64,000 bases of DNA. It comes from a virus. A program made the translations under genes and the position numbers. Each line of letters starts with the position of its first letter. The stretch's first letter is position 1. The notes under the pieces are model-generated. The model saw only the letters and a program-made list of their open reading frames with translations. It had not been told where the DNA came from and did no database searches. Location of the stretch: the IMG/VR virus record IMGVR_UViG_3300045988_119396; one strand, given 5' to 3'. Shown here piece by piece: positions 2,570 to 59,400 of this stretch.

Positions 2570-2717
2570 GCTAGAGAAAATCCTAACAACAATAGTCTTT
2601 TTGATAATTGTAGTTGGTTTAATTTTTTTACAGATAGATACAGTCATGAAATTTTCAGCTGCAATGTTGGTTTTAATTTATTGGGAACTTGAAGATATTT
2701 TGAGAAAACTTGATTAG
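2517..2717 (+). CDS. small membrane protein (possible)
   Basis: Track ORF; one TM helix; start uncertain, overlaps previous gene. Confidence 0.3.
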   Translation: MSLQLLEKRRKKTIMKIELEKILTTIVFLIIVVGLIFLQIDTVMKFSAAMLVLIYWELEDILRKLD

Positions 2718-2729
2718 GAGGAATAGCTC

Positions 2730-3140
2730 ATGGATAGACCATTACAGAACATAAACGATATAGATACATCTAAAATTGTTGAAGTCTATGATAATCTAGT
2801 GTGGTACAAATTATCATTAGATAATGGTTGGACATCTTATACGCTGCGTGCACATGATTGTATGCACGACAACGTGGAAATCTACAACAAGGATAATATC
2901 TATTCTGATGATGGATATACCCTCGGTGTTAATTTCTCTCATATTCCATCTGAACGCTATGATGAACTACGTCCCATTGTTAAGTGGTATGGCTGTAAGA
3001 TTGAAGATGATGGGGAAGTTGTATTGCATACTAATAAGATGAGATTTGGGAATCCGTTATTAAATATGACGTTAGCCCTTAGTACAATCGAAAACTACTT
3101 CGAGTTTAGTGGCAAGAAGGGAGATTATCCATACGAATGA
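2730..3140 (+). CDS. hypothetical protein
   Basis: Track ORF; RBS GGAGGAATAG upstream. Confidence 0.5.
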   Translation: MDRPLQNINDIDTSKIVEVYDNLVWYKLSLDNGWTSYTLRAHDCMHDNVEIYNKDNIYSDDGYTLGVNFSHIPSERYDELRPIVKWYGCKIEDDGEVVLHTNKMRFGNPLLNMTLALSTIENYFEFSGKKGDYPYE

Positions 3141-3511
3141 CAAGTGCTGAAAGAGAGTTTAATAAGTCAGTGCGTAATCTATCTACATACCTTGAGAGTG
3201 ATGACATGATTTCTGCTGATAACGAACTAAAAGTTATGCGTAAAGTATATGACGAGATGAAAAAGATAGAAAGCCATAGCATTACATTATGGCTATTTGT
3301 TACAGCGGCTTTGGTTGTGTATATTGGTATGGGATGGGGTAAGTACGAAATACTAACCATGCTAATGACAGGACTAGAGGCATTTTCATTTGCTCTAATG
3401 ACTTATACTTCTAATATAGTAGATAATTTTATTGACAATATCGAATATTGGGAAGACAAGTATAATTTACATAAGGGGGTGAACAGACGAGTTGACAACA
3501 GTATCAACTAA
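3137..3511 (+). CDS. hypothetical protein with two central TM helices
   Basis: Track ORF; ATGA overlap with preceding gene. Confidence 0.5.
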   Translation: MTSAEREFNKSVRNLSTYLESDDMISADNELKVMRKVYDEMKKIESHSITLWLFVTAALVVYIGMGWGKYEILTMLMTGLEAFSFALMTYTSNIVDNFIDNIEYWEDKYNLHKGVNRRVDNSIN

Positions 3512-3740
3512 TAATGTAGTAACAGTATATACTAAGAATAATTGTCCGCAATGCAAGATAACAAAACGTAAGTTGCATATTTTGGGTATTAACTATCATG
3601 AACACAATGTAGATGAAGACCCTAAAGCATTAGAATATCTAATAGAAAGAGGCTTGCGTAGTTTACCTGTTGTAGTTACAGAAGATGATACATGGACTGG
3701 GCTACGAATGGATAAGTTAAACAATCTTCAAAAAAGATGA
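3492..3740 (+). CDS. nrdH: NrdH-like glutaredoxin
   Basis: CPQC redox motif near N-terminus; ~80 aa thioredoxin-fold size; RBS GGGGGTG before TTG start. Confidence 0.75.
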   Translation: MTTVSTNNVVTVYTKNNCPQCKITKRKLHILGINYHEHNVDEDPKALEYLIERGLRSLPVVVTEDDTWTGLRMDKLNNLQKR

Positions 3741-3761
3741 ATATTTCTTAGTTTTTCTGTT

Positions 3762-3790
3762 GACTTTTATTTTCTATGTGGTATCATAAT
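3762..3790 (+). promoter_or_regulatory. sigma-A-like promoter (TTGACT - 17 nt - TATCATAAT)
   Basis: Consensus -35/-10 spacing seen directly. Confidence 0.4.
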
Positions 3791-3905
3791 ATATGTAGTT
3801 AAGAGTTAAGAGAATAAACGAGCAACTCAAAGCTACAACAAAACAATTAAATAAATCTATTATATGCGTTGAGCTTACAAAATGTGTCCTGTTAAGTAAG
3901 TCAAC

Positions 3906-3985
3906 AATCGGATAGCTTAATGGCAGAGCGTACGAGTATGATAACGATACTTGTAAGGTTTGATGTTCAATTCATCAATCCGATA
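3906..3985 (+). ncRNA. tRNA-like element (non-canonical, possibly degenerate tRNA)
   Basis: Perfect 7-bp acceptor pairing; D-arm-like TAGCTTAATGGCAGAGC; T-arm TGATG/TTCAATT/CATCA; 7-bp anticodon-like stem with loop GATAACG; spacing not canonical. Confidence 0.3.
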
Positions 3986-4530
3986 TTTGTCACAGTGATT
4001 ATTTGACAATAATGTTTATTTTGTACTCATGATGAGTACCTCCTTTTATTTAAACTTATTTTTCTGAATTATGTAGTACGTATACCTAATCACTGTGGCA
4101 CACCTCCAAGTTAGATTGGTAGGTGGGTAAGATAACGGTATTGCCCATCTACAAAAGAGTTGGCACTTCTCCTACATAAAATTAGAATTAATGTTTCATT
4201 CCAGTCAGCTCTTTTGTAGGTGAACAAAACTTAGTTTGCCTAAACAATTTTCGCAAGTCTGAAAGGATTTGTACTTTCCAAATTGATGGTGTTCTATGGT
4301 TAGTATTTCTCTAGTCTATTTTGTTAATTATTTTAATACTAATTTTAATATCATCTCTTTAACACTTTTTATTTTTATATTATTTTGTTTTTATCTGAAT
4401 GTCAGCCCATTAGGGTTGATATATCAGCGAGTAGACGGTTGACTTTTTGATATATTTTTTACGACCTCCGATTTTATGCTTGTTTTTTAAGCTACTCGTT
4501 GATATATCCATCTTAGTCGGAGGTGTAAGC

Positions 4531-4746
4531 GTGGATAAATTAAGCAATATAATTGATAAGTTTCTCTTAACAAGAACATGGTATGTAATACAATGGCTGT
4601 TTATCATAGTTATTGCATTTGACCTAATCTTTTACAGCTACGGTTTCTGGACTAAGTTATTCTATTTAACTGGTTTGACAGCTGGGTTTAGCAATATTAA
4701 GGAATGGCACAAGAAGCGTACCTATTCTGTTAAGAGAAAACATTAA
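4531..4746 (+). CDS. small membrane protein (GTG start after GGAGGTG RBS; inside track ORF 4447..4746)
   Basis: RBS + GTG; hydrophobic core. Confidence 0.3.
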   Translation: MDKLSNIIDKFLLTRTWYVIQWLFIIVIAFDLIFYSYGFWTKLFYLTGLTAGFSNIKEWHKKRTYSVKRKH

Positions 4747-4871
4747 TATACATACAACTCTAAAGCTATAACATATCTTAATTTTTTGCGTGATATGTAT
4801 CGGCTTACTTTATAAAGTTAGTACAGTATAGAATATAAAATCATTACATCAATTTAGTGAAGTGAAGCGAG

Positions 4872-6041
4872 GTGAGTAAGATGTTAAAAGGTATTAAATT
4901 ACGTATATACCCAAATAAGAGACAACGTGAACAGTTGGATATTATGTTTGGTAATAGTCGTTTTATTTGGAATAATATGTTAGCTACGATGAACGAGCGT
5001 TACAAGAATAACAAAGATTTACCTATGTTAACCGAGTATAAATTACATGTTCTACTAAAACCTTTGAAAGTTGAATATCCATTCTTGAAAGAGAGTGATA
5101 GCACTGCTTTACAAGTAGATTGTCAAAATCTGTATCGAGCGTGGAAGAACTTCTTTAAATCTGGTTTTGGTAAGCCTAGATTCAAGTCTAGGAAATTCTA
5201 CAAGCAATCTTATACAGGTAAGTCGGCACCTAATGTTCATGTAGTAGCTAAAAGATATATGAAACTACCTAAGCTAGGCTATATCAAAACTAGCAAAACA
5301 TTTCAACTCACCGATTGCAAGATTAAACGTTATACGTTAAGTCATGGCACGACTGGTCGTTATTATTTATCTTTACAGGTAGAATGTGAAAATCAAGCAT
5401 TGTTACCTAAGACAAATAAATCAGTTGGGTTAGATTTAGGTGTAGCAGATTTAGCTATTTCTTCTGATGGAATTAAATATGATACATTCCATGTGGGAGA
5501 TTTAGAACATAAAGCTAACTTGTGGCAACGTAAGTTTTCTAAGCGTAGACATCAAGCTAAGGTTTGTATCGAAAGTGATAAATACTCAAAAGTATTAGTG
5601 CCTAGAGATTTTGATGATTTTAAAAATCTACAAAAGGCTCGAAAGCGCAAAGCGAGATTGCAAGCTAAGATAGCTAACAAACGTAAAGATTACTTGCATA
5701 AATTAACCACTACGTTAGTAAAGCAATACGATACTATCGTTATTGAAGATTTAAAGGCTAAGAATATGATGAAAAATCATAAACTAGCAAAAGCAATAGC
5801 TAACGGTTCATGGTATTTATTCCGTTCTATGTTGGAATATAAGTGTAATTGGTATGGGAAGCAACTAATAGTAGTTAGTCCTAAATACACTTCACAAGTC
5901 TGTTCTAACTGTGGTGTAAATACAGGCAAGAAATCGTTAGATGTTCGTGAGTGGACTTGTGATAATTGTGGTACACATCACGATAGAGATATTAACGCTG
6001 CTAGAAATATCTTGGCTAAAGGATTGAAAGAAGTAGCTTAA
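4872..6041 (+). CDS. tnpB: TnpB (OrfB) RNA-guided nuclease, IS200/IS605 family
   Basis: Ruv[12 protein letters not shown], Ruv[11 protein letters not shown], zinc finger CSNCG...CDNCG, Ruv[16 protein letters not shown]; all three catalytic acidic residues present. Confidence 0.9.
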
Positions 6042-6300
6042 ATAAGCGCAAAAGGTACGGGACGTGCCTCGGTAATATATCTAGGTTCTGTAAGTTAGGC
6101 TTAGTCCTAAATACTACCTAGAGTTCCCAGAAACCACCGTTTTTAATAGGTGTGTAGTCCATATAAGGCAGCTTGATGGTTGCTAAAGGGAACGGGTTGG
6201 TTTTTCACATCCTTTCAATGAATACAGATAATTAACCCCTAATACAACTTACAATACTGACACAGTTTTTGTCCCGTTCTCTCTAGGAGCTATCAAAAGC
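6042..6300 (+). ncRNA. candidate TnpB omega-RNA / right-end RNA
   Basis: Structured GC-richer region immediately 3' of tnpB; position expected for reRNA. Confidence 0.3.
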
Positions 6301-6923
6301 TCTCCCAAAACAAGTCTACTACATGTTAAGAGTTTAGAGAATAAATGGTAGACATTTGGTATGTAAGGCAGTAGAAAAATGCTAACACACCACAGCATTT
6401 ACACTAATCAGACGTCCTTGCATACCACGCTCACAGACTTTGGCGCAACGAGGAATGTGGGAGCGGATAGCTGAGTCACAGGTGGTGTTGTGACAGAGAG
6501 CTATGCGTAATTATTTATCTTAGTTGGTAGTCATGTGGTGTATATGTGTAGCACACTCGTCCTTAACACGAGAGAAGTAGGGTTCAACTCTCTACCATGA
6601 CATAGAGGCGAAATGTCTCGAAACAAGCATATCTTGTATGGTGATATACATTGTTATGTATTGATTGGTTATTAATCAATCTCATATAAATACTCCTTTT
6701 TTTTAAATTATTTTTTTGGTTACCGCAGATGTTAAAAGGTGCATTTTACGAGTTCGACTCTCGATGTGGTAATTGGGGTAGAGCATGAATGCCCCGAAGC
6801 ACAATAACGGTAAGTGCGTAGATTTACGTATTTTGCGTGACATTAAAAAGTTAATTCATGAACAGGTTCATTACGACTTACGTGGTTGGTTCATGAATAA
6901 GATTTCCTCCTTTTAAAAAGGTA

Positions 6924-6985
6924 TACGGTGTAGCTCAAATGGTAGAGCAAGGAGGCTGATATGGGTTCGAGTCCCATCACCGTAA
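6924..6985 (+). pseudogene. tRNA fragment (acceptor + D-arm + T-arm; anticodon arm missing)
   Basis: TACGGTG..GTAGCTCAAATGGTAGAGCA..ATGGGTTCGAGTCCCAT..CACCGTA; only 62 nt. Confidence 0.3.
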
Positions 6986-8067
6986 TTTTGTTCTTTGACA
7001 ATCGTATACTTTACTATTCAAACAGCAATTCAAGCATAACCAGTTGTATAAGGGGTCTAATCAACCCTTGCTGGATATGTACCTGTAATTCGTAGTAGAT
7101 GTAGTCTGAGTGATAGCTTAGACAAGTCGTGAGATGGTTAGTAATATCTATTGAACCTAGTAAAAGCTAGGACGTAGGGTACGTATGTGGATACATGTGA
7201 CGTTAGTGTTTCACTGGCTGTTGGCATTAGATAATAGACGCTTACAGTGTGAGAATAACCCATTGACAGCTTAGTGTGGCAACTAAGTGTTGCGTTGGGA
7301 ATGCCAAGAATAATGTTTGCCTTGACGCTTAGGAAACTAAGCTATAACAACAGAGGTGAGAACAAGTAGGGTAATGGCAATATATACAGTTAACTTGTGC
7401 ATTACAAACGACAGATAAGAGATAATTTTGTAAATATTCTGAATGATAACCTGAAAGTTGGGATTTACCATAATCGCCACATTTTTAAAAAGCAAAAGGA
7501 AGTGATGAGGTAGCTCTTTGTCACTCAGACCTTTTGAGATGTTCACATAATAAACGGTAGCATGTTGAAGCAGAGTGAAAGCTCATGTTTGAATTGCTAT
7601 TTGAGTAGTGAAGCATATGATATATCAAAGAACATATAACTATATTTACTCACCTCGGTAGTTATGTTCTGGTTCAACTCCAGAAGTGAGCTTTGTACCA
7701 ACTCCCGACACACCTCTCATCAAGGCAGTACCGTTATGCGTACTTTAAAGTGGGACGGGTGCGGTACGGCATCTCGTTAGTACGTTACTCGAGGGTGCGG
7801 AAGGTGTTTTGCAAGGGACATACTATGCCAAGCGTGGAGGTTGATTACCTCGCAGCAGATAGCTACTGTTGTCATACGTGCGAGCTTGGTGTGTGTAGTT
7901 AGGTGTGCCGCCTATTTAGTAAGTTGTCTTAAAGTGGCAAGATAGCTTTTCGATTATAAGCCCGTTAGCCAGCTATCCCTTCGGTGCAGTGGAGTTACTC
8001 GCTAGACTTCGCTAGGGAGCAGATTGCAGAGGCGACTGTGATTTATGCTTGATGGCTGACTATTTTT

Positions 8068-8157
8068 GGTAAGTTACTCAAGTTGGTGAAGAGGACAGTT
8101 TGCTAAACTGTTAGGTCTGCGATTGTAGACGCAAGGGTTCGAGTCCCTTACTTACCT
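8068..8157 (+). tRNA. tRNA-Ser (anticodon GCU), type II with long variable arm
   Basis: 7/7 acceptor pairing GGTAAGT/ACTTACC; 3-bp D-stem; anticodon stem ACAGT/ACTGT with loop TTGCTAA; T-arm AAGGG/TTCGAGT/CCCTT. Confidence 0.6.
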
Positions 8158-8177
8158 TTAACAATTAAATATTAAAG

Positions 8178-8404
8178 TTCGTGTGCATATACAGGAATGA
8201 TTTCACATTGTCATGTTTACCCTTGCAAGTGAAAACACAAGCAGCGTTACAATTACATATTATTGTTTGTCTAGTAATTGATGTAATTGTTCATCGTCAG
8301 TTAGCTGTTACTCTGGTTTAAGGTCTATCAATTCTTGTTCGCATTGCTTTATTAGTTCTACTTCTGGGAGTTATGTTCTAATCATTCCTGTACATACACA
8401 CGAA
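8178..8404. repeat. 25-bp inverted repeat pair (8178-8202 and 8380-8404, 23/25 match) bracketing ~175 bp; right arm abuts dNK start
   Basis: TTCGTGTGCATATACAGGAATGATT vs reverse complement of AATCATTCCTGTACATACACACGAA. Confidence 0.5.
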
Positions 8405-8405
8405 T

Positions 8406-9137
8406 GTGAGAAAGAAGTTGGTTAGTATTATCTATGTAATTGGTAGTATTTCTGCTGGCAAATCTAGCTTAACGGAGATACTCGCTAAAGATTTAAATAG
8501 TACCCCATACTACGAAGATGTAAACAATGGCTTAATCAAAGGCATGTTGGAACATTTTTACAGTGCTGGTGCAGAAAGTAGAAAACAAGTTAGTGCTATG
8601 TTACAGGTGGCTTTCTTAACGGTTAGATACCAACAATTAAAGAAGGCTATCGTTGAAGAAAATGCTATATTAGACTCCAATCTAGTAAGCGATTATATCT
8701 TAGCACGAAATATATATGAACGAGGGGAAATGGACGAAGACGCTTATAACGTTTACATGACATTGAACCAAGAAATGCAATCTAATGTTAATGGTAGTCC
8801 TTTTAACGGTTTTCCAGATTTAGTAGTATATATTGATATTGATGAAGAAGCTGAAATTGACTCAATACAAGCACGTGGTCGTGATATGGAAGATGTACGT
8901 AAAGACCCTAAGTTAGTTGATTATTATCATTCAGTGAATAGAGCATACAAGCGTTGGTATGATGGGTTCTACCAAGCACCAGTTGTACGCATTGACCGTT
9001 CACAATACGATTTCGTAAACAACCTATCCGACCGTAATGAAGTACTTAATCTAATTGAACAAAAGCTAGTTGATTTAGGTAAATTGACGCAAGATGAGTT
9101 CGATAAAATCAAAGCAAAACGTGATAAGGAGGTGTAG
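8406..9137 (+). CDS. deoxynucleoside kinase (dAK/dGK family)
   Basis: N-terminal P-loop GSISAGKSS; size and layout typical of dNK. Confidence 0.75.
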   Translation: MRKKLVSIIYVIGSISAGKSSLTEILAKDLNSTPYYEDVNNGLIKGMLEHFYSAGAESRKQVSAMLQVAFLTVRYQQLKKAIVEENAILDSNLVSDYILARNIYERGEMDEDAYNVYMTLNQEMQSNVNGSPFNGFPDLVVYIDIDEEAEIDSIQARGRDMEDVRKDPKLVDYYHSVNRAYKRWYDGFYQAPVVRIDRSQYDFVNNLSDRNEVLNLIEQKLVDLGKLTQDEFDKIKAKRDKEV

Positions 9138-18968: not shown

Positions 18969-19181
18969 GTTTTGTTAAAAAATTCTCGGCACGTATTTAA
19001 CGGTAGTGCCTATGTCCCATCACGCTCTCAAAAACGTGTGAACTCTCAAATCATGGTTATGGGACGGTGTGTTTTTAAGTGACGTAACTTTTAAAACCAT
19101 GCCTTGTTTTATTAGTTTTCGCAAAGAACAGCTAACTTTGCAACGACCTATCAATCTTTTACAATTAATAGACCCAGTGCG

Positions 19182-28075: not shown

Positions 28076-28420
28076 CTATCCCATAATATATTGTTTTTCA
28101 GTAATTACTTGTTCTTGCCAATTATTACTATGGTTAATTAAGCTGATATTTTTAGTTGATGTATAACTTTTATCACTATTGCTTACATACTCACCAAAAA
28201 TATCTCTTAGCCTTGTACCCGCCCCTTTAGCAGTAAATCCACTAATATAGCCTTTCTTGTTGCTATTCTTAATTTTGGCATAATCATTTAGCCAAAATCC
28301 TCTAGCGTATTTAGTATTTTTAGAATTTCTTTTACTTGTTATATTAGGTGTCTTACGACCCTTACGTGCCGTAGCCTCATGTAAGGAACGCTTTTTCTTT
28401 CTAAATTGTTTAAACATCAT
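28076..28420 (-). CDS. Lys/Arg-rich protein; possibly frameshifted C-terminal remnant of the IscB-like gene
   Basis: Frame is open back to 28475; contains WLNDYAKI resembling RuvC-III N-D-x-A-x-x-I. Confidence 0.35.
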   Translation of the reverse strand: MMFKQFRKKKRSLHEATARKGRKTPNITSKRNSKNTKYARGFWLNDYAKIKNSNKKGYISGFTAKGAGTRLRDIFGEYVSNSDKSYTSTKNISLINHSNNWQEQVITEKQYIMG

Positions 28421-28457: not shown

Positions 28458-29387
28458 CTAATTATTATAGTGGGACTTAGTTAATTCTAAGTCAGCTCGC
28501 TGTAATGTTGTCCATGCTCCATACTGAAATTTAGCTTGAGGGAAAGCTAAAAATAGTCTTCTTCTTAGAATGTTCATGAAAGTCGCACCTTTATAAGACT
28601 TGTTGACTTTCTTTTTATCCTTACACCATTTAGCTAAAATTCCAGTTTGGTGATTTTTAGTTGTGTGGCAATTAGAACATACTGTAATTAGATTATTTAC
28701 AGTGTTAGTTCCACCTAAAGAACGGTAGATAATATGGTGGATTTTGAGTTTACCACCTTTTTTCTTACATACTTGACAAGTATAGTTATCTCTAGCTAAA
28801 ACAAATTGTTTAACAGTTTGATAGCCGTATAAATCACCTTGCTGATAACCCTCACCATTTATTTCTGGATTTTTCATTTTTTGAATATCAAACTTACCTA
28901 CTTCGATATGTAAATCAGCTTTAGGTAAGACTGATAATAAACGCTTTATCCAGTTGATATTATGGTTAACTTTACTTAATACCGAAGGCGGTAGCCAGTT
29001 ATCTTTTTTCTTAGCTATACGATTTAAAAATTTAGCTTTACGATAACGTGTTTTACGGTTACGTCTACTTCTACGATATATTCTTCTAGTATCTATTAGC
29101 TTTTTGACATCTTGTCTTAACTCTACTTCGCCTTGAAATAAGACTTTATCTTGGCTTGTAACAGCTAGTCCAATATGTCTTTGACCGCTATCAATACCAA
29201 TACTTATATCCTGTTTATAACCAGTTGAACCATATAAGAGCTGAATGGTAAAAGGTTCTTTTTTAAGTACCTTAGCTTTACCATCTCTTAACAAAATTCT
29301 AGCTTTTCTAGGCTTACATGGCATTAACGCTTTACCATGTTTGTTAATCACAAAAACTCGGTTTTGCATAATTTGTACTCCTTTCAT
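28458..29387 (-). CDS. iscB: IscB-like OMEGA nuclease (PLMP + RuvC-I + bridge helix + RuvC-II + HNH), ORF ends inside RuvC-III
   Basis: KALMPCKPRKARILL (PLMP), IGIDSGQRHIGLAV, RRIYRRSRRNRKTRYRK, LHIEVGKFD, CQVC..HHIIYRSLGGTNTVNNLITVCSNCH, then KSHYNN-stop. Confidence 0.7.
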   Translation of the reverse strand: MKGVQIMQNRVFVINKHGKALMPCKPRKARILLRDGKAKVLKKEPFTIQLLYGSTGYKQDISIGIDSGQRHIGLAVTSQDKVLFQGEVELRQDVKKLIDTRRIYRRSRRNRKTRYRKAKFLNRIAKKKDNWLPPSVLSKVNHNINWIKRLLSVLPKADLHIEVGKFDIQKMKNPEINGEGYQQGDLYGYQTVKQFVLARDNYTCQVCKKKGGKLKIHHIIYRSLGGTNTVNNLITVCSNCHTTKNHQTGILAKWCKDKKKVNKSYKGATFMNILRRRLFLAFPQAKFQYGAWTTLQRADLELTKSHYNN

Positions 29388-29637
29388 TTTTTATAAGGTA
29401 CTAACGACCTTATCACGTATTTATCAGAGTTAATAAATACATGTAGTTACCCTTCGACAATGTTATTTCAGCTTATAAACAAGGTTGACTAGCACATTAA
29501 CCTTATGCTTGTTTACAGAGCCTCCATAGTGCTAGAAACTAGGGTATCATTTCTAGGTATGTTCACTGAAATAACGTAGTTCTCTAAGAACTTAGTCTAG
29601 ACAACAAAATTATTAAGTTACCTACTTTAGTAGGTGG
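29388..29637 (-). ncRNA. candidate IscB omega-RNA region (5' of iscB, same strand)
   Basis: 250-nt ORF-free stretch with several hairpins (CCTAC/GTAGG, CTAGAAA/TTTCTAG, TCTAGA). Confidence 0.3.
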
Positions 29638-30135
29638 TTACTGTTGACCCTTCTTAGTCATTTCTTCCAAAGCGTCTTGCCACTTATATTCCACATCTTC
29701 CTTGATAATAGGGTTAGTTTTCTTCGTCAGACCAACAACCTTAACCCTAAAGTCATGAACACGAGGAACTACAATCTCAACAGGAATACCATATTGCTTA
29801 GCAAACATCTTAAATCTTAATTGTGCTGCTGGGTCAATATTGTATGTTGAGTTAAACCCTGTCTTGACGTCATAAACATGCAGCAAGTTACCATCTTCAT
29901 CTCTTATCACAACATCTGGTGTGTAATTAGCACTTCTCAAACGCAGACCATTGTGTAATTCCACCATAGGTTGTATTGTAAAAGACTCGTGTACGGTAGC
30001 ATTTAAATCTCTACCATAAATAAATCGCTCATAAAACTTAGCTTCTTTTTCAGAGTCAAATTTCAGACCATTAAATTCAACTTTCTTACCAAAGTAAGTT
30101 GTTCTACCTCTATTAATTCTAGTTTTGCACCTCAC
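29638..30135 (-). CDS. DUF1064-family protein (PD-(D/E)XK-like)
   Basis: FDSEKEAKFY...QP...TPDVV..DEDG..HVYDVKTG matches DUF1064 pattern. Confidence 0.6.
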   Translation of the reverse strand: MRCKTRINRGRTTYFGKKVEFNGLKFDSEKEAKFYERFIYGRDLNATVHESFTIQPMVELHNGLRLRSANYTPDVVIRDEDGNLLHVYDVKTGFNSTYNIDPAAQLRFKMFAKQYGIPVEIVVPRVHDFRVKVVGLTKKTNPIIKEDVEYKWQDALEEMTKKGQQ

Positions 30136-30697
30136 TTATGCGATTTTGTTAAGAGCTTGTTTATTCTCTGAACCCTTAACTTAACTATTACATTATATCA
30201 TATATTAATATTAAATCAAGAATTAAACGCAAAAAAACCTCGCAGCAGAAAGCTACGAGGTCAAAAAGGTTTACAGTGTGTTATAATGTATTGTGGCGAA
30301 AGTTATAAAGACGGTGGCTGACTTATTAGAAAGTGTGGTGTTGCCTATGCAATGCGAAACTAACGAAAGGAAAGCCATTTGTGTCTGTCTATCAAGCCTT
30401 GATGTTGATGTTAACATTCGGTGTGTTTCTGTTAGCATTACTGACATACATCAGCAAAAAGTAAGCAACTTTGTTGTGACGATAGTAGATACAGTAAAAC
30501 CGTCCGATTGTAACTTTGGCGAGTTCGTGGACGGTTGCTGTATGTGACTATCTAAGTAACTATGCCACCGTCTTTTAAACGGTCGCTATAAGTCATGCTT
30601 CGGCATGGCTTTTTCTATTTATAGAATATCACAAAATGCAATAAATTACCATATTTGATATTCCACAACGTTTCACAGCATTCCATTTTTGTGTGAT

Positions 30698-40815: not shown

Positions 40816-42597
40816 TTAATATTTATATGGTGCTGCGAAGAAAATAGCTTTCATTTTGCTACTTCCTCCATCATCAATGATTGGCTTAATCGCACCATCT
40901 AACATCTTTGTTAAACCTTCTCCTGTGATAGTATACGGTATTCTTACCAAGAAGATATCATTGTCATCACAGTATTGGTTTTTAATTTTATCGTAATTGA
41001 TACGCTCTTCAAATTTCTTATCTCCACCCCAGTATTCTACTGATTTGAAATGTTGTTCACCATCATATTCAATAGCCATGTTAGCAGATGGAATATAGAA
41101 ATCGAATGGCAGTGGTTCTGCATTACCAATACAATCGTCAAAAGTCTTTTGTGGCTCATAATCAATATTATGTTTAATCAAATAATCCTCGATTAGAGCC
41201 TCACCACGTGATTTACCACGTCTAGCACAACGTGGACACTGTGTCCCACCATTAATAAAATTGCTAGGACTCGTTTCCCATTCATAGCCACAAGTATTGT
41301 GCTTCATGAGAATAGATGTAATACTATTCACATACTCGCCTAGTGCAGTATATTCATCACCATACAGTGCTTCTACCTCGTCTTTATATTGTTCTGTTGT
41401 CTTTCTAAACTTTCCAAAGCAATGTGGGCAACCAGTTCCTCCTAACATGTGATTAGGAACCATCTCAAATTCTTTCCCACATACGTTATGCCTAAACAAT
41501 ATTTTATCGTGAGAAGTTTTGTATTCTCCTAAAAGGGTATACTCATCACCACGTGCTTTCTCTAATCTCTCTTTGAACTTCTCAGTTGTTATATCCTTTC
41601 CACCACCATGACATTCGGGACATATTCCACCACTTGTCAAAAAGTGATTTGGTTTTCTCTTGTAAACATTCCCACATACATTGTGCCTATATTTAATTGG
41701 GGCTCTTGCACCTTTATATTTTTCTAAAAATGTGTATTCGTCACCAACTAAATCGTACACTTCTTTGAGAAACTCCTCATTTGTCTTCATACGACTTTTA
41801 CTTCGACACTGTGGGCAACGTGAACCTCTTTGGAATGAGCGTACTTGCGTCTTCCATTCATATCCACACTTATTGTGGCGAACTAGCATAGGTGTTTTAA
41901 CGTTGACATAAGGTTCTAGGAAAGTATACTCATCGCCCACCATGTCATATACTTCTTGCAACCATTCTTCATTAGTCTTTCTAGTTCTTTTACCACCATT
42001 TTGCTTGCTTTTGTCAATAGTACAATTAGGGCAACCTCTCCATTCGCCGATACGGTCTGACCTAATTTCAGTTATGCTACCACAAGGCTTATGTTCAATT
42101 TTCAACTTTGCCCTATCGCCTTCAATCTTTTCTAAGACAATGTAGGATTTGTCAAATGCCTCTTCCAGTTTTTTCTGATATACTTCAATCTCCTTATAAT
42201 TTCCAGGTTTCTTGCAGTATGGGCATTTATATTTTCTCTTTTTGCTCTTAAAATTTCGTGGAGTTATCTTAAATTTGTTCCCACATACATTGTGCAAGCA
42301 AGTTAATTCCGTATTGTTGTCTACATACTCATCTAAGAATGTAAACTCATCACCTTTAAGTTCCTTAACTTTTGCCAACCATTTTTCATTGCTCAGCTTA
42401 TTACCAGAATTACATTTAGGACAACGGACACCATGTAGAAAATGATGTGGGGTCACTTTCCACTCGTAACCACATTTATTGTGTCTACACGCAATTTTTG
42501 CACTACTTTTTTGATAAGGTTCTAAAAAGGTGTATTCATCACCTGTAAGTCCCTTATATTCTTTCTCCCATTCTTCTTGAGTCTTTCGGTTAACCAA
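40816..42597 (-). CDS. six tandem zinc-ribbon repeats + C-terminal Vsr/DUF559-like endonuclease domain
   Basis: 6x ~65-aa repeat GDEYTFLEPY....RHNxCGxxW...P..F..G..CP.C; C-term LPFDFYIP..MAIEYDGEQH...ERINYDKIK.......LVRIPY. Confidence 0.6.
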   Translation of the reverse strand: MVNRKTQEEWEKEYKGLTGDEYTFLEPYQKSSAKIACRHNKCGYEWKVTPHHFLHGVRCPKCNSGNKLSNEKWLAKVKELKGDEFTFLDEYVDNNTELTCLHNVCGNKFKITPRNFKSKKRKYKCPYCKKPGNYKEIEVYQKKLEEAFDKSYIVLEKIEGDRAKLKIEHKPCGSITEIRSDRIGEWRGCPNCTIDKSKQNGGKRTRKTNEEWLQEVYDMVGDEYTFLEPYVNVKTPMLVRHNKCGYEWKTQVRSFQRGSRCPQCRSKSRMKTNEEFLKEVYDLVGDEYTFLEKYKGARAPIKYRHNVCGNVYKRKPNHFLTSGGICPECHGGGKDITTEKFKERLEKARGDEYTLLGEYKTSHDKILFRHNVCGKEFEMVPNHMLGGTGCPHCFGKFRKTTEQYKDEVEALYGDEYTALGEYVNSITSILMKHNTCGYEWETSPSNFINGGTQCPRCARRGKSRGEALIEDYLIKHNIDYEPQKTFDDCIGNAEPLPFDFYIPSANMAIEYDGEQHFKSVEYWGGDKKFEERINYDKIKNQYCDDNDIFLVRIPYTITGEGLTKMLDGAIKPIIDDGGSSKMKAIFFAAPYKY

Positions 42598-50428: not shown

Positions 50429-53400
50429 TTATAATGATTTAGATTGGACTTGTTGCTTAGCAATCTGTGGTAAGTTCTTAATAGCTTCTTCAAATCCTGT
50501 TGGGTCTGTTACATTAGGGAACTCTAATGTTTGATGTTGAATAACCATAGACAATGTTTGTGTTGGTGCATTAGGTATTCTTGGTGAAAGGTTAGGGTCT
50601 AATTTAAGAGCGTCCCTTAATTGTTGACCGAACATTTCACTGATTTCCTTACCAACTACTTTGAATTGGTCTGTGAACCCTTGTAAGATTTCTTGATAAC
50701 CTGTTAAGCTACCAACAGCCTTAGAGTCACCATATTTACCTAAGATGTCCTTGTTTCTATTCACATAATCAGTATATTGTTGGATAATGTTTTCAAGCTG
50801 TCCAGCGTTGTATTCTGGAATATCATCTAAAATACCAACACCATAAGCGTCTTGTAATTGTTGTAGTCGTGTCTTGACTTCATCAATATTCAATTCGCCT
50901 GTCTTTGCACCGTCAATTACTTTTTCAACAGCGTCAACAAATTGTGACTTCATCTGTTTCTTGTAATCTTCCATGTCTACTTTAGCTTGTGTTAAGTTTT
51001 CTCGTGCTGTATCAACATCATCTTGGTTGGCCATGTAAGTCCAATTAAACTTACCGTCTTCACCTTGTGTTAATACCTTAGTATCACGTTTACCTAACGT
51101 ATTATCCAAAGCCTGTTGTGCATTTAACACATCTATTTGTTTATCTACGTAATCAGCCTGTATCTTAGACATTCTTGATTGAGCGTCCAAAGCCTCGATA
51201 CGTTTCTTCACAACTTCATTTTCTAACTCAATAGACTTTTGTCTTAATTGTTCTAGTTTAAGTTGCTTAGATACACCATCAATCCAGATGTCGTCTTCAA
51301 ATTTAGTTCTATCAGCAGTACGTCCACCATTGATAGATTTTTCAAATTCCTTAGATGTAGCCTCCATTGTGTTTTCAAATTGTGAACGTGAAGCCTCCAA
51401 TAAATCAGCAATAGATTGATTTACTTTTGAGTCCATTTCATCAATTTGTTTTTGTAATGTGTTCCATTCAAATGAGTTTACATCATATCCAGATTGTTGT
51501 TCTCTTAGCTTATTAGCTAATGCAATATAAGTGTTGTATTGCTTTTCAATAGTCTTGTATTGTTGCTCTAACAACTTAGCTTGAGTTGCTGGTTGCATTT
51601 GTAAGGTCTTAGCTAATGTCACTAAGTTGCTTACTGTATCTGTAACCTTTTGATATTTATCTAATTGGTCTTGGATAAGTGTATTTTCATAGTCAAATCT
51701 TTCCTTGATAATATCTTTAATATTGTTTTGAGCGTCAATGTTATCTTTTTCATATTGTGCAATACTTTCTTTTAATGTTTGACGTTGTTCTGTCGTTAAA
51801 TCTTCTGTCTTGAGTTTCTTTTGCATATCATCAATAGCTTGCAAATTACTATTAATAATTTGTTGATATAACTCACGTTGCATATCCATTTGTTGAACGA
51901 CAAACTTCTGATTAATTCTTGAACGTTGCTCATCATTTGCAGCAGCCTTAAGTTGCTTATTGTATTCTTCACGCAATTTAACTAACTCATCTTGGTATTT
52001 AACCATTGCTTTGGTATATTCAACGCTACGTTGACCTCCACCAATAGTAATATCATTTAAGTTAGCTTGACCTGTTGGTGTTGCGTAAGTAGCAAACTGT
52101 GTATTGATTTCACCTACATACCCTTTAGCATAATCTTTTGCAAGGTTAAGCATTTGAGCATATTTGTTTTGTTCAACTCTTAATTGAGCTGCAGCAACAT
52201 CATTTTGTCTATCAACATTTTTCTTTGCGAAAGCGTCCATAGCACTATCTAATTGCTTTTCTAAATCAATACGTTGTTGTATTTGTCTTGATAAAGCAGA
52301 TTGTTGTTCAAAATCAGTAACAGATAGATTAGAACTCAATAAATCGTCAAATGTCGTACCACTTAACAATCCATCTTGCAACTGTTGTACATTAGATTTC
52401 AAACGGTCAATATTGTTATTAATCGTATCGGTAAACTTAGTCAAGTTTCCTGTGTATTGGTCGATTTCTGCTTGTTTCATATTGTTTTGTAATTCCAATA
52501 CGCTATCAGCAGTATCTAAGATGGTTTGTCTTAAATCATTTAAGCTATCTTCAATTTTTTCTGCCTGTTCCTTCTTTGAGAATGTCATAGCAGATAGTTT
52601 ATTGAATTGACCTATTAATTTTTCCAAACCAGCTGATTGTTCATTAATTTCCTTTGCACTGAAACCTAACTTCATAGCGTAATCTTTTTCACTCAATGAG
52701 TCGATTACTCTATCTGCCAAATTCTTGGAGTATTCAACTGAACGTTTCACCATTTCCAATTCACGTTGAGCCTTTTCAATAGCTTGTGACTCAATTTCTT
52801 CTTGGTAATCTTGGATATTCTTATTTTGTTGCCAAATATCTGTATTTAATTCATCTATCTTCTTAGTTACATCAGATAAGTTTTGATATACATTTTGGTA
52901 GGTACTTAACAACTCATCAACCTTACTTGCTTGGTCGCCCTTGAAATTCTTAGCGATATCCAAGTTGGTGATTTGGTTACCATTAGTACGGAAACCATAT
53001 CCACGTAACTTACCCATGACATCATTTAATTGGTTTTGGTATGCCCCACGCATTTCTTCTTGATATGCTAATTGTTTTCTATCTACATCAATTTTTTGAC
53101 GTGCGATATTAATCAATTTGTTCATATCTTCATCAGCTTGCGTTACAGCATTCTCCAATTTAGACGCTTGTTCATCTAGTGGTAAACCTTTGTAGAGTTC
53201 CTTACCCATGTATCTCCAGTATTCTTCATTTACCTTTGTATCATCAGCCTCAGAATAATCTCTAACTCCCATATTAGCAGCAGTACCATTTATAACACTT
53301 ACTACATCTGGGTTATCAGTAGCTACAGACATTGAACGGAATGCGTTAGGACTTACAGCATAAGAAGCGTCAACTCCACGTCCCAATATGCCAAGTGAAC

Positions 53401-56400
53401 CATTAATGGCAACAGAAGGTGCTTTCTTTGTAACAGTAACCGTTTCAGATTTCGTAACACTAATTGATACACTCTTTTCTGATGGAATACTATTAACAGC
53501 ATTAGCTACATTTGTCGCTGCGGCTGCAGCTGCCTCTGCACCAGTAACACTAATAACCGTATCGTGGTTTGGTGGAATTGAGTCAATCGCACTCTTAACG
53601 GTATCAATTACAGAACTTGCTTGGTCGTCAGCAGTGATGGTTACTTCTGCTTTAAGTCCTTGTACCGAACTTTGAATGCTAGATATTGTTGAGGCTGTAT
53701 CATCTTTGGCTGTAATGCTAATTTGTGCCTTAACACCAGTGATTTTACTCTTGATACCCGAAATTGTATCACCAGTCTTATCTTCTGCAGTAATAGGTAT
53801 CTTAGCTTTGATATTTTGAACCTTAGATTTAATCTTGCTTATACCATCACCAGTTTTGTCTTCGGCAGTAACAGGTATCTTTATCTTTTGCCCCTTACCT
53901 TTGGACTTAATCTTATCCATCGTACCTTTAGTTTTATCTTCACCTTTGATAGGGACTTTGATATTTGCTTTTTTGCCTTTAGACTTAATTTTGCTAAGCG
54001 TATCCTTAGTTTTATCCTCGCCTTTAATAGGTACTTTGATATTAGACTTTTTACCCTTAGACTTAATTTTATTAAGTGTATCTTTGGTTTTGTCTTCACC
54101 CTTGATAGGGACTTTGATAGCCTTTCGTTTACTGTTAGATTTAGCCTTGCTTGGTGAAGACTTGGAACTAGCTTTACTACTCCTTTTCTTAGCTGCTTGT
54201 GCCTCAATCTTAGCCTCTTCATTTAATTTCTTAGCTAAATTACGCTTTTCTTTAGCAGATAACTTACCATCATTGTTCTTGTCGGCTGCTTTGTACTTCT
54301 TGGCAAGCCTTGCCATTTCTTTCTGTCTAGCTTGGAGATTACGCTTTTCTTTAGCTGTTAGTCTACCACCTTTTGAGTCGCTAAGTTTACGCTTTTTGCC
54401 ATTTTCATCTGAGTAATCTTTCTTCTTGTTAGATTTATTTGACTTATTGGATTTGCTAGATTTTGTATCTTTTCTGTCTTCTTTTTTCTTGTTCTTTTTA
54501 TTCTCAGATTGTCTACCCTTGTTTTCAGCGTCAGCTTTCTTCTTACCTAATTCTTCATATTTCTTTTGTTCCGCTTTACTTAGCTTACCGTCACCGTTCT
54601 TATCAGCTTTATTGAAGTTCTTAACAGCTTTTTGATAATTGTCATAGGCTGTCCTATCGTCCTTCTTTAATTGTGCTAACTGTTTCTTAGTCAGGGATGA
54701 ATATTGCCCATTCTTCATGGCTTTGAGTGCCTTATTGGCAGCTTGCATACTCTTAGTATTCTTTAATTTATCAGCTTCCACTGTTGGAATTATGCCTGGT
54801 GCTGTAATTTTGTCGTTTTTCTTACCGTTCTTACTACCCTTGCCGCCTTTGCCAGACTTACTTTTTAACAGTTTTTCAAGTTGCTTATTACTCTTGATAC
54901 TATCTACATAATCTTCTGCGTCCCCAGAGTCATCACCAAATGCTTGGCTATGTGCGATATCTTCTTGCACTTTCTTCTTAGCTTGTTTCAGGGTCATACC
55001 ATTCTTCATATTAGCTTGAATGGATTTTGCAACAGATTGCTGGTCTTTCTTCCCTTTAAACTTGCCATTGCTACCACGCCTAATCATAGCGTCATTAGCT
55101 TTGGTTACAGCTCTATCTTGCTGTGTATTACCATTTGCGTCAAAATATCCGTCAGCATTTGTCGCAGCTACCAATGCGTCTTTTTGGTTTTTCGATAAAC
55201 TTTGGTCGTTTTGAATTGCGTCAACAGTGCCTTTTTTACCTTGTGTAGCAATCATTTGCCCCAAAGCACTGATGGCATTTTTGTTAAGGTTAAAGTTATT
55301 CTTAGAACTCAGCTTGCCGTTTCTCCCACCATGCTGTCTAAGATGACTTAATGCACCCATTGCTTGAAGTTGTTGTTGTCCACTAGCAGAACCTTCACCC
55401 AATGAAGTGATTAATCCAGGCAAGTCGGACGCACCAAACACATTCTCTAATTGACCTAATTGTTTTAGGTTCATACTACCATCAGTATTAGTTTTAAAAC
55501 CTAAATCACGTAGTCTGTCACCAGCAGAACCCTTCTTGAAGCCATAAACACCATTACGCTTACCATAGCCTTTGTTAAGCTCGGAGTTAATAGTAGCAAT
55601 AGCGTTAGTATCAACCATTCCATCTTCGGTAGTTATACCACGCAAGATTTGGTTGTCAGGGTTCCTCTTAGCCCATGCGTCAATTTGCTTTTGTTGTTGT
55701 ATCATGGCTTTAGCCCATCTATCACCATATTGCACACGATACTTAGCTCCAACACCTAATGCGTTCATACCAACATTACCGAATGTCGACATTTCACGAA
55801 TGTAATCAGCGTTAGAACCACTAAATCCATTTACAATTTTATCTTGAACCTTACCAGTAATACCAGTGCCAGTTAAAATATCACGTAGTTTTTGTTTTCT
55901 ATCATCAACCAACTTGCCACTTTGTGTTTGTAGGTTATTGATAGCCTCTCTTTGTTCGGCTGTAATTTCACCGTTTTGAAGCTTGATATTAGATAATACT
56001 CCACCTTGTTTAGACAAGTATTCTTGTTGTTGTCTTGTAAGGTCTTTGCCTTCACTCAAACGCTTATTGATGTCATCTAACGTGTTCTTTTGTTGTACCC
56101 AGTAACGAAGATTACGCCCCTCAGCAACAGTAGCTTGTTGTCCAAAATCAACACCCAGACTCTTATAATCGTCTTTTTCAAAAGCCCCGCTATTGATAAC
56201 TTTTGCTAAAGAACTCAAACGACTGGCGGTAGCTTTATTAGCTGCGTCAACAGCTTGTATCATCTTTCTACCATCTGACGAGTCCCATATCTTTTCAGCG
56301 TCCTCACCAAATCTAAATGACCTATCTTGTAAACGCTTATTCTCTAAATTGGCATTAATTTTCTTTTGTACACGCTTGTACGCATAATCATTCTTATCTC

Positions 56401-59400
56401 TTCTACTTTGATACTCTCTTTCTTTTTCTATATCAGCGTCATAATCATAATAACCCTCACCATGTCTTCTAAATAGCTTATCCCAAAAAGTTCTTTTTTC
56501 GGTTGATTTCCATAAATCATTTAGTTTACTTTGGCTTGTTATTTTTTCTGCTTCACGAACTTGAGTATTGTACTGATTTGCACCTTCGATAGCGTCATGA
56601 CGTTCTTTTATTTTAAGCTGGTCTTGGAATTGCTGTTGTGCGTCTTTCATAACTTCAACATTATTTACTTTTACACGAACCTTTAATCCCAAGTCTTTAG
56701 CTTTCTTATTAAAGTCCTTTTTAAAACTAGCAAAATCATCATCAGATAACTTATTGTTCAAGCCAGCATTAGTAGCATTTGTTGCACTATCATTCAACGC
56801 TTTGTTTAGGTCGCTAACTGTTTTCATTGCACTTGCAGCTTTACCATTGTACACAGAGTTCTTATCTAACTTTTTACTCATTGCGTCAATGGTCTTAACA
56901 TTTTTATCCAACGAAGCGTTAAAATCATCACTTGCGGCTTTAGCTGGATTTACAGCACGCATAAATTTCCCGATTGGGTCTAACCCCATCATTTGAGCAA
57001 TAGCTACGCTTAACGCACCAACGTCTAAGATAATACCGCCAATACCAAGTAAATCTCCAGCCATACTTGTAACGGTAGCAATCTTACCCATTCCACTAGC
57101 AATTTTAGAACCAGTTTTTGATAGTGTGCGGGCTTTTCGATTAGTAGTTTCAACTTCCTTACCCATTTCTTTGGTTGCGTCTGTTGCTTTGCCAACGTTT
57201 TGGGTTTCGTTCTCAAGTGCTTCTGCAGCTTTCTTACTTGCCTTAGACGTCTTATCTTTAGCCTCGGCAGATTTTTCTTCTTGTTTTACAGCCTCTTTTT
57301 TACTTTCAGTCTGTTTCTTAGTAGCTTTTTGTTCTTTGCCGCCATTTTCTTGTGCTTCTTTGGATTCATAAAACTTTCTCATAGCTTTAGCAAGCTCATC
57401 TTCTGGTGTTTCATCAGCCTTTGGTCTGCTTCTACCGTGTAGCTCATCAACTTTGTCGTCCCAATCATCTAACCAGTCATTTTTAGCTTGCCCACTTAAA
57501 AGATTAGTTAATTTTTCCCACTTAGCAGCAGTGACATCTCTAGCAGCGTCAGCTAAACCAGATAATGCTTTATGAAGTCCACTAATACCAGCAATAGCAC
57601 CAGTGAACATTGCAGCACCTCTAAATATCTTATTATTAGCTAAGCTATCAAGCACATTAACAACAGAAGTACCAGTATCAACAATCTTATTTAAGCCTTC
57701 ACGTCCACCAACAACATCATTTAACATTTGTGTCCATGAGTTCTTTAATGTAGCTAGATGAAATTGAACAGATTGTTGTTGTTTCTCAAATTCTTGGAAA
57801 GCAGAACCATGGTCTTTATCAACAAGATTTACTTGTCCTTGTGACTCACGCATAGCTTTTTGTACTGTCTTCCAGTTTTCTAACATACCAGTAAATTGAT
57901 TAGAATGTTCCTTACCAGCAGCGTATAAAGCAGCGTCAGATTTTTGTTGTTTACTTAACTTGCCCCATACCTTAGATAAATCATTCATGATTTGGTATGT
58001 AGACTTCATCTTCCCATCAGATGTCTTTAAATCGACACCTAATCCATGGAAGAAATCAGAACGTCTCTTATCCGTTGCTGTAACACCAGAACTCATCTTA
58101 GAGAAGTTGAGCGAGATTGCCTTGATAGAACGTCCAATAACATCACCACCAGCACGAGTAGCTTCTTGAGCACCAGTAATCATACCAGTCAACTGACTAA
58201 ATGTAGTACCTGTACTTGCCACAACAGAACTAGCTTTAGAATACGCTTGACCCAAATCTTCCATTTCAATAGCGTTCTTGTTAGAAACTTGGTTCATACT
58301 ATTGATAATATCTTTAGATTTAAGTCCTTCTTTTCTAAATGAGTTCAATGGAACAGCCATGTACTTAACCATATCATTAACGTCTACGTTACCAACGAAA
58401 GAACCCATAACAGAGTCTTTAGCCAAACTAATAGATTGTTTTAATGATTTACCAGTCGTAATCCATTGTTCAACAGCGTTAGCATATTCTGGTGCTGTCT
58501 TACCTACCGCACTGGCATTCTTGTAAATTGATTTAGTAAATGCGTCTATATCTTTTTGTGGTGCATTGGCGACCTTAGTAACACGAGTAATAGCAGCGTC
58601 AACTTCACTTAATGCAGAAACAGCACTAGCAACAGCATAAGCACCTTGTTGTGCCATGTTGTAAACGTCCATTGTCGCATTGAACCCAATACGAGTTTTA
58701 CGTTGTTTTCTTGACTGTATTCTGGTTGTACCCAATTCTTCCGACAAGGCATTAACTCTACGGTCATGAGCGTCACTATTTAAACCATTATCACGTATTT
58801 GTTTACGGATTAAGGCTTCTTTTTCACGTTCATCAGCTAACTGCCTACGTGTAGTACGCTTAGCAGCCGTATCAGTAACCCTAGCCAATTCTTTTTCGAG
58901 AGATATTTGACGTTTGATACTACCTTCTAATGATTGGTACGCTGCCTCTCTAGCACGTACCTTGGCAGTAATAGTACCGTCTGCTCTAGCTGATTGAATT
59001 TCAGAACTATTACCGTTTTGGCGATGTTTCATTTGTTCAACAAGGTCTGGGTTGTATTTATCAACCTTTTCAGCTAACTCATTAAACTCATCTTGCTTGT
59101 GTCTGATTTCACGCTCTAAAGCAGCTTTTTTATCTTCCTCACGAGCTGTTTGTTGTTTTTCTTTTTCAAGTTGGTCTAACCTAACTCTTTCTTGTTTAAG
59201 TTTAACCAAACGTTCGCCAGATTTAACCAATTCTTTTTCAGCACTTGATTGTTCTTTAAGCAACTGCGTTTGAGCTTCTAATTGAGCTTTTTGTATAGCA
59301 TTATTTTCTGTAACAAGTTTTTGAGCTGCACCTATTTTTGAATATTCTTCGGTTTGAGCCCTCATAGTAGCATACTTTTCTTTTAACGCAGCTAAAGCCC

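Follow-up and report, generated by a model that had tools for sequence, protein, structure and literature searches.

One of the known systems closest to the locus studied here is the insertion sequence ISDra2 of Deinococcus radiodurans, with its protein TnpB. Our locus is a tnpB-bearing element within a 64,000-nt virus record, IMGVR_UViG_3300045988_119396; this whole stretch of DNA is called the window, and all coordinates are window coordinates unless a locus with an L number is named. The window protein is homologous to ISDra2 TnpB over its full length, with the same order of domains and with aligned D/E/D residues and zinc-finger cysteines, and in both elements a guide-RNA scaffold lies at or downstream of the 3' end of tnpB and closes at the right end of the element. 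In contrast to ISDra2, which has tnpA and complete ends, the window copy is without tnpA and is truncated at its left end. The scaffolds of the two guide RNAs (omegaRNAs) are unrelated at the nucleotide level, and the target motif of ISDra2 is TTGAT, whereas that of the window family is TTTAY. Our analysis led us to conclude, with near certainty, that the window carries a truncated TnpB-only element of the IS200/IS605 family that was acquired by insertion.

Also close are the IS1341-type elements of Lactobacillus intestinalis, Limosilactobacillus reuteri and Levilactobacillus zymae, whose TnpB proteins are 57-65% identical to that of the window. These Lactobacillaceae elements share the length of 1.42-1.47 kb, the CCCAGAA-hairpin-GTAGTTCAY right end, the omegaRNA helices and the insertion 3' of TTTAY; unlike the window copy, these multi-copy elements retain a left-end hairpin. 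TnpB matches were also found in 618 phage records, and the genes annotated as 'transposase' in Lactobacillus phages LP65, Lb338-1, Lbab1, Iacchus, Semele and 521B, as well as in Streptococcus thermophilus phages, encode nearly full-length TnpB homologues of 42-58% identity. These isolated-phage copies are not close, giving no megablast match to the region; a megablast search with 3400-8500 against 50,697 phage records returned zero matches, hence no isolated phage was near enough to compare the insertion. TnpB-only IS200/IS605 elements are already known, and ISfinder files the tnpB-only (IS1341-type) arrangement within this family; the added value of the present locus is its reconstructed history, comprising empty sites, five junctions, a recombinant and the loss of the transposase-binding end. 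The element and its immediate surroundings comprise the following features:

4752-6162 (+): whole inserted element, TnpB-only, IS200/IS605 family, with a truncated left end; 1411 bp, delimited by blastn against plasmid copies and by empty sites
4747-4751 (+): TATAC, a pentamer resembling the target-adjacent motif, directly 5' of the element; 4/5 matches to TTTAC
4752-4880 (+): left-end remnant of 129 nt; the outermost ~40 nt typical of the family are missing
4881-6041 (+): tnpB coding sequence, 386 aa plus stop, starting MLKG
6054-6155 (+): omegaRNA (right-end RNA) scaffold, defined by covariation among 50 family members
6126-6162 (+): right-end motif CCCAGAAACC-hairpin-GTAGTCCAT, ending at T6162
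6163-6182 (+): predicted guide segment ATAAGGCAGCTTGATGGTTG, phage DNA flanking the right end, positioned relative to T6162

The open reading frame (ORF) called mechanically, which is the sole long one of the region, spans 4872-6041 (+), and its GTG at 4872 falls within the GAGGTG ribosome-binding site. The true start is likely the ATG at 4881, with GAGGTG just ahead of it, and the close homologues, all of 384-386 aa, start with MLKG or MIKG. An earlier note on this DNA had described an intact TnpB with the three RuvC catalytic residues and a C-terminal CxxC..CxxC zinc finger, in an IS1341-type arrangement without tnpA, and our results agree with that description. The full-length protein matched three Pfam domains, all above the curated cut-offs (HTH_OrfB_IS605, 6.6e-15; OrfB_IS605, 1.6e-17; Cas12f1-like_TNB, 3.6e-28), so that one protein of ~400 aa combines an N-terminal HTH/WED-REC part, a split RuvC and a C-terminal zinc ribbon (TNB). 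Residues 4-382 aligned to the solved ISDra2 TnpB (8bf8/8exa/8h1j) with an E value of about 5e-59, and in that alignment D185, E289 and D370 fell on the catalytic D191, E278 and D361 of ISDra2. These three residues were invariant across 28 family members, as were the two CxxC pairs of the zinc finger, C341/C344 and C360/C363. The closest proteins, with 88-92% identity, came from metagenome assemblies. Within the 64 kb there was a single TnpB homologue, and a tblastn search of the same 64 kb with TnpA of the family found no TnpA, the Y1 HUH transposase of IS200/IS605 insertion sequences (best E = 3.6). Judging by conservation and purifying selection alone, the protein is probably active, as the note had also supposed.

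The limits of the element were established from copies in other replicons and from vacant sites in related phages. Plasmid copies are represented by metagenome loci in which tnpB is flanked by genes for ParA and RepA_N (L001-L007); blastn against four of them (L001-L004) aligned 4762-6162 at 90%, after which identity ceased. In every close copy the common sequence closes with ...GGTGTGTAGT(C/T)CAT and the flanks diverge from the next base, which places the right end at T6162. The sister phages comprise L008, L009 and L013, which bear the element at other sites and are syntenic with the window from the glutaredoxin to the deoxynucleoside kinase gene, and the element-free L014, L015 and L172. 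They were located through protein look-ups and IMG/VR, and a metagenome scan using the 99-aa neighbour protein added a single relative, L172. L014 and L015 are IMG/VR phages of 126-129 kb, and the group hosting the element is that of ~127-kb Lactobacillaceae phages. In L014, L015 and L172 the homologue of 2576-4754 runs straight into the homologue of 6163-6976, with no copy of the element in the region. With the slash marking the junction, the empty site reads ...AAAACTAC/ATAAGGCAGC... and is seamless in six relatives, including the element-bearing L008, L009 and L013, while the window reads ...AATATAC/ATACAACTC...[element]...GTAGTCCAT/ATAAGGCAGC....

Read most economically, these alignments show 4752-6162 inserted between C4751 and A6163, 3' of a short motif and without target-site duplication, as is typical of the IS200/IS605 family. 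We dropped a reading of the junction as TACAT plus an extra AT at the right, given that TATAC/element/ATAAGG needs no added bases. A span of 4747-6300, as proposed in the earlier note, overshoots the right side by about 140 bp. Its interpretation as a mobile element was upheld by the empty site in L014, L015 and L172 and by the ~90% identical copies found elsewhere; an ancestral, non-mobile phage gene is ruled out by the empty sites. A search of IMG/VR for the exact right-end junction of the window gave one match, L173, an unrelated GC-rich chance match.

The ends and the target motif of the family were derived from a scan of one genome per species, which yielded 80 loci, mainly from Lactobacillaceae and with no more than 64% identity. 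In genomes with multiple copies (L. intestinalis, L. reuteri, L. hamsteri, Levilactobacillus zymae and others) the copies share 1.42-1.47 kb, and longer shared blocks occur in Faecalicatena and in an AnMBR Limosilactobacillus genome. The shared block opens with TTTAT or TTTAC and closes with GTAGTTCA(T/C), and TTTAC lies directly 5' of the left end in single copies of the nearest clade (L016, L010, L008/L009, L092, L094, L102 and L115). As the multi-copy blocks and the single copies all begin at TTTAT or TTTAC, we take TTTAY as the target-adjacent motif of the family. Reading of the aligned upstream regions of the relatives led us to identify a left-end hairpin about 16-21 nt inside the end, with a TTTA-type loop and compensatory changes in the stem, for example CCTACGAC-TTTA-GTCGTGGG; further stems are TTATAAC/GTTATAA, CCCCTGAC/GTCGGGGG, CACGTTCT/AGGACGTG and CTCGGGAT/ATCCCGAG. 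Such a left-end hairpin is the expected binding site of TnpA, which uses it to find the cleavage site in the transposition of IS608 and ISDra2. In some members tnpB is directly preceded by a TnpA gene, as in L100, where a 151-aa Y1-type ORF occupies that position. In 73 sources (the window and 72 fetched loci), tnpB is followed at an equal distance by the right-end motif.

Mobility of the clade is apparent from its distribution, with 86-92% identical copies in the plasmid loci L001-L007, the contigs L010-L012 and L016, and the sister phages L008, L009 and L013. The plasmid copy nests among the phage copies, and therefore the element moves between replicons; on these sequence comparisons, the clade circulates among Lactobacillaceae chromosomes, plasmids and phages. 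In one of the contigs, the short metagenome contig L012, the tnpB at 116-1270 has a premature stop after 172 codons, representing either a decayed copy or an assembly error.

The sequence 3' of the tnpB ORF has a GC content of 0.39-0.43 vs 0.30-0.34, and an alignment of the last 240 nt of 50 non-redundant family copies revealed a conserved RNA structure in it. RNAalifold predicted 20 pairs in four helices, and 14 of these pairs showed compensatory changes; the helices map to the window as follows:

6054-6059/6063-6068 (+): omegaRNA helix 1
6071-6072/6127-6128 (+): omegaRNA helix 2
6080-6084/6118-6122 (+): omegaRNA helix 3
6133-6155 (+): omegaRNA helix 4, the right-end hairpin

In a pair-count test 94.5% of the cells were paired vs 33-49% with slid partners, and the covariation score was 0.586 vs at most 0.108 in controls, a value reached by 0/500 shuffles. 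Helices 1-3 are wholly paired in the window copy. A single-sequence fold of the omegaRNA region of the window was no better than shuffles (z = -0.6), so the evidence for the structure is comparative only, and no Rfam family matched the omegaRNA. The clade of the window differs from most members in lacking one internal RNA stem-loop (alignment columns 224-263). These results confirm that, as the earlier note had proposed, structured and GC-richer sequence follows the ORF, and they support its placing of a right-end guide RNA there that reads into phage DNA: a covarying scaffold follows tnpB and stops at the element boundary, the element ends at 6162, and the predicted guide is derived from the flank, starting at 6163. 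The guide 6163-6182 had no second match within the window at up to 3 mismatches. Its 16-nt form had 18 matches in IMG/VR, all in unrelated environmental contigs and none in a sister phage, which by a rough estimate is about the number expected by chance.

The window copy is a truncated derivative and not a complete element, because it lacks the left-end hairpin that its relatives keep with compensatory changes. When aligned with five close copies, its left end starts after the hairpin, ~40 nt being gone that comprise the tip and both hairpin arms. The right-end hairpin, CACCGAT-TTTA-GTCGGTG in L008 vs CACCGTT-TTTA-ATAGGTG in the window, has 2/7 non-pairs. IS200/IS605 elements are characterized by subterminal imperfect hairpins at both ends and by the lack of terminal inverted repeats; in the window copy these hairpins are reduced to a right-end one with 2 mismatches. 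Both structures for TnpA recognition are evidently damaged while the ORF is intact, and TnpA can probably no longer move this copy. The -35 and -10 hexamers have also changed, from the near-consensus TTGACT...TATAAT of the plasmid copy to CGGCTT...TACAGT in the window, and no promoter-like site was found on the + strand at 4780-4870. As no terminator-like site was found between tnpB and the upstream ORF on the same strand, transcription of tnpB by read-through from upstream phage genes is plausible.

Despite this decay of the ends, tnpB appears to remain under purifying selection, with a ratio of non-synonymous to synonymous substitution rates (dN/dS) of about 0.1 (0.08-0.11 vs six close copies). 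Although the nearest copies differ by ~9%, the reading frame of 1161 nt is free of frameshifts and premature stops. Among the codon changes particular to the window, 19 were of the synonymous type and 10 non-synonymous, none of them catalytic or zinc-binding; by our own estimate, the neutral expectation is ~3 non-synonymous per synonymous change. The 121 nt from the stop codon to the right end showed 7 differences vs the plasmid copy (5.8%), compared with a synonymous divergence of 0.37 in the ORF, which implies that the non-coding tail is constrained. We lean towards the view that TnpB and its omegaRNA are still functional.

Comparison of the sister phages uncovered five junctions, A to E, within ~520 bp, distributed over four element-bearing phages (the window, L008, L009 and L013), with three others being element-free:

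4239/4240 (4235-4245, +): site A, left-end junction of L008 and L009, TTTAC followed by the complete left end
4394/4395 (+): site B, right end of L008, preceded by TTTAT
4390-4412 (+): empty site of L008 in the window, TTTAT then CTGAATGTCAGCCCATTA; 18 nt identical to the right-end flank of L008
4424/4425 (+): site C, right end of L013, preceded by TATAT
4420-4440 (+): empty site of L013 in the window, TATAT then CAGCGAGTAGACGGTT; 16 nt identical to the right-end flank of L013
4584/4585 (4580-4596, +): site D, right end of L009, GGTAT/GTAAT..., inside the 99-aa ORF 4447-4746
4751/6163 (+): site E, the window copy, preceded by TATAC

Site A is uninterrupted, as TTTAC/CTAAAC, in L013, L015 and L172, and carries TTTGC in L014 and in the window (TTTGC/CTAAAC). 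In the element-free references, all four right-end junctions fall directly 3' of TA[CT], for which the chance is about 1e-5 at this composition, and three of the four lie within one mismatch of TTTAY (chance about 0.002), a motif derived from the bacterial copies. The phage DNA from site A to site B in L008, or to site D in L009, is gone, and in L013 the left flank is fused at an AAAGG microhomology straight onto the ribosome-binding site of tnpB. The left backbone of L009 is 100% identical to that of L008, and on the right its backbone shares 91-93% identity with L013, L014 and L015 vs 81% with L008. The elements of L009 (3837-5275) and L008 (5838-7275) are identical in alignment columns 1-100, 401-900 and 1301-1400 and show patchy differences elsewhere, a mosaic that suggests gene conversion between element copies. 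With an L008-like left side, an L013/L015-like right side and a patchy element, L009 is therefore a recombinant with breakpoints in or at the element. Presence and absence were also seen between close backbones, namely L013 vs L015 (about 95%) and L008 vs L172 (89-94%), and the elements of L008 and L013 are 93.4% alike while their backbones are 83-88% alike.

The simplest account of these arrangements would be several independent TnpA-type insertions into a non-essential intergenic stretch, followed by recombination between phages with the element at different sites, with loss of the interval lying between them. Alternatively, the same junction products would result if TnpA joined the right end to a motif located downstream. 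Self-cleavage by TnpB as the cause of the shifted right-end junctions was ruled out, every right end being intact to its last base. What the sequences of the sampled relatives document is movement of the element by transposition and recombination, and not homing.

For the locus as a whole, the explanation that we consider quite probable is that of a non-autonomous IS1341-type insertion, immobilised, whose TnpB-omegaRNA is perhaps homing. A host TnpA acting in trans would have brought the element in by single-strand 'peel-and-paste' insertion, and the later loss of ~40 nt of its left end would have prevented further excision or transposition. If the copy is no longer excisable, it could spread only by homologous recombination or by TnpB-stimulated copying into a vacant allele. 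An upstream read-through transcript would be processed into an omegaRNA with a guide of ~16-20 nt within 6163-6182, and TnpB-omegaRNA would cut the target motif plus guide sequence, that is, the vacant allele of a co-infecting relative, in the form of a TTTAY-like (or TATAC) motif 5' of ATAAGGCAGCTTGATG. Recombinational repair from the occupied genome would then copy the element in, a TnpA-independent, 'non-restorative' homing, and recombination through the element would also reshuffle its flanks.

In a plasmid population, TnpB has been reported to drive spread independently of TnpA, and the same paper discusses non-restorative homing into co-infecting phages as a possibility (PMC13565253). 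An analogy to T4-like homing endonuclease genes was drawn in the same work (PMC13565253). The T4-like free-standing homing endonucleases, such as SegB in the tRNA region and SegF, act by intronless homing or marker exclusion, and the window tnpB is like their genes in being a nuclease gene between conserved genes in a tRNA or accessory region, with presence and absence among relatives and recombinant flanks. In contrast to these enzymes, target recognition by the window system would depend on an RNA guide and a short motif, not on protein, and the junctions of the window group bear a TnpA-type insertion signature. The window carries perfect targets for the guides predicted from its sisters, TTTAT plus 18/18 nt at 4395 for L008 and TATAT plus 16/16 nt at 4425 for L013. 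The broader idea that in the ~127-kb Lactobacillaceae phage group TnpB elements home, or exclude competitors, between co-infecting phages without TnpA is one that we hold as tentative and rather improbable.

Several observations weigh against this account of an immobilised, perhaps homing copy. At the target of the window guide, six sampled relatives read ACTAC or AATAC, not TTTAY, and differ by a 1-nt insertion or deletion at position 4 or 13 of the guide; lacking both the canonical motif and a full guide match, they are unlikely to be entered by homing. The pentamer at the site itself, TATAC, differs from the canonical TTTAY, and the promoter hexamers of the copy are degenerate. Relatives have a well-paired right-end stem of 7 bp; its two mismatches in the window copy could make helix 4, the guide-proximal stem of the omegaRNA, less stable. 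The loss of ~40 nt from the left end stops exactly at the junction, with no phage DNA lost. Four different right-end junctions in four element-bearing phages point to transposition and recombination rather than to homing of a single insertion, and the signal of purifying selection may largely predate the arrival in the window phage.

A rival view takes the copy as an inert passenger, a recently inserted, crippled and decaying relic whose TnpB and RNA would have no effect in the phage and whose ORF would be intact only through shortness of time. The lost left-end hairpin and the two mismatches of the right-end one, the degenerate promoter and the non-canonical site motif would all fit such a relic, as would an insertion found in the window phage alone among seven relatives and a cleavable target absent from every one sampled. 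This view is, however, hard to reconcile with window-specific changes in a ratio of 19 synonymous to 10 non-synonymous, where neutrality predicts roughly 1 to 3, with the zero frameshifts or stops in 1161 nt at ~9% divergence, with omegaRNA helices 1-3 that are fully paired, and with a non-coding tail far more conserved than the synonymous sites; we therefore consider it unlikely. That the copy has stayed mobile, with a host TnpA excising and transposing it in trans, as is assumed for IS1341-type elements, seems to us very unlikely. TnpA-bearing family members do exist in Lactobacillaceae (the 151-aa Y1-type ORF of L100 being an example), the L008 and L009 copies retain a complete left end beside TTTAC, and the junctions fall at TTTAY-like sites; nonetheless, both the left-end hairpin and the ~20 nt on its 5' side are missing from the window copy, whose right-end hairpin is also weakened.

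We assign the lowest probability, bordering on negligible, to a domesticated TnpB, recruited by the phage for exclusion of competitors or for RNA-guided regulation and no longer selfish. An element that is immobilised while its gene and RNA are conserved, and that sits in a variable accessory island, could be read in this way, and phage-borne domesticated relatives (TldR) are known. TldR proteins lack the RuvC catalytic residues, and unlike these regulators the window TnpB has its catalytic residues intact; furthermore, its predicted guide is a plain insertion-site flank with a single match in 64 kb, and the element is missing from most relatives.

The surroundings of the element contain several further genes and RNAs:

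3492-3740 (strand not given): NrdH-like glutaredoxin gene (Pfam)
3907-3985 (+): tRNA-like gene of 79 nt, 35.5 bits in Rfam, no ARAGORN call
4447-4746 (+): conserved ORF of 99 aa, 77-83% conserved in relatives
6530-6602 (+): tRNA-like gene, ARAGORN anticodon TTA, 32.3 bits in Rfam vs a threshold of 29
6924-6985 and 8068-8157 (strand not given): tRNA-like genes from tRNA and Rfam scans
7016-7603 (+): ROOL RNA, 245 bits in Rfam

The earlier note had set the element between nrdH and a long tract free of ORFs. Such a tract does follow, but it is an island of tRNA-like genes and ROOL RNA, and the element is not directly beside nrdH, as a tRNA-like gene and the 99-aa ORF intervene. The anticodon TTA of the gene at 6530-6602 would read the ochre stop UAA, and homologues are present in L013, L014 and L015; this gene may be a phage suppressor tRNA. 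At the position of the ROOL RNA, with the same tRNA-like gene and the same downstream sequence, sister phages hold a second, different TnpB element (L014 7098-8785, with a 418-aa ORF; L008 9199-10620, with a 473-aa ORF), and in L013, L015 and L172 a sequence resembling the right end of this second element is also found there. No ROOL RNA was found in the fetched segments of the sister phages.

A second OMEGA-class nuclease, IscB-like, had also been proposed for this phage, and the corresponding locus is present:

28458-29648 (-): IscB-like locus, a HEARO RNA upstream of a 309-aa RRXRR + HNH ORF

The HEARO RNA scored 115.9 bits vs a gathering score of 83, and the alignment of the ORF with IscB structures extends as far as the K[ST]H motif of RuvC-III, where the ORF stops at ...TKSHYNN*. 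It therefore ends at RuvC-III, without the last catalytic Asp and without the C-terminal domain that interacts with the target-adjacent motif (TAM), so that two working OMEGA nucleases in this phage are doubtful. The ORF 28076-28420 was considered as a displaced IscB C-terminus and dropped, having no IscB similarity.

With regard to the phage itself, the window has no close isolated relative. The protein encoded by its terminase-large-subunit-like ORF at 40816-42597 (-) shares 39% identity with its counterparts in Lactobacillus phage LfeInf and in Staphylococcus myoviruses, and no isolated phage exceeds this value; the relatives matched the ORF in two or three separate pieces, and in those relatives the matching stretches carry annotations as endonucleases of the HNH or intron-associated kind. 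At 50429-60040 (-), in the structural region, there is a very long ORF of 3203 aa. Rfam also gave, at gathering level, the Listeria sRNA rli28 at 30272-30451 (+) with 66.8 bits, and the salivarius-1 RNA motif at 19012-19065 (-) with 50.6 bits vs a threshold of 50, which fits a Ligilactobacillus or Lactobacillus host.

In summary, TnpB is very abundant and is routinely labelled 'transposase' in phage genomes, where its role is largely untested, and the literature puts non-restorative homing forward mainly as a possibility. If homing were true for this group, the window copy would be a transposition-dead, nuclease-competent element kept by its homing or marker-exclusion activity, the guides predicted for L008 and L013 would direct cleavage of the window phage at 4395 and 4425 when the phages co-infect, and the indels and motif changes found in relatives at the window's target would be escape variants. 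Otherwise, the locus is simply a well-documented case in which an insertion sequence has moved about and degenerated within the accessory island of a phage. The locus supplies concrete pairs of guide and target for asking whether TnpB alone biases inheritance between co-infecting phages.

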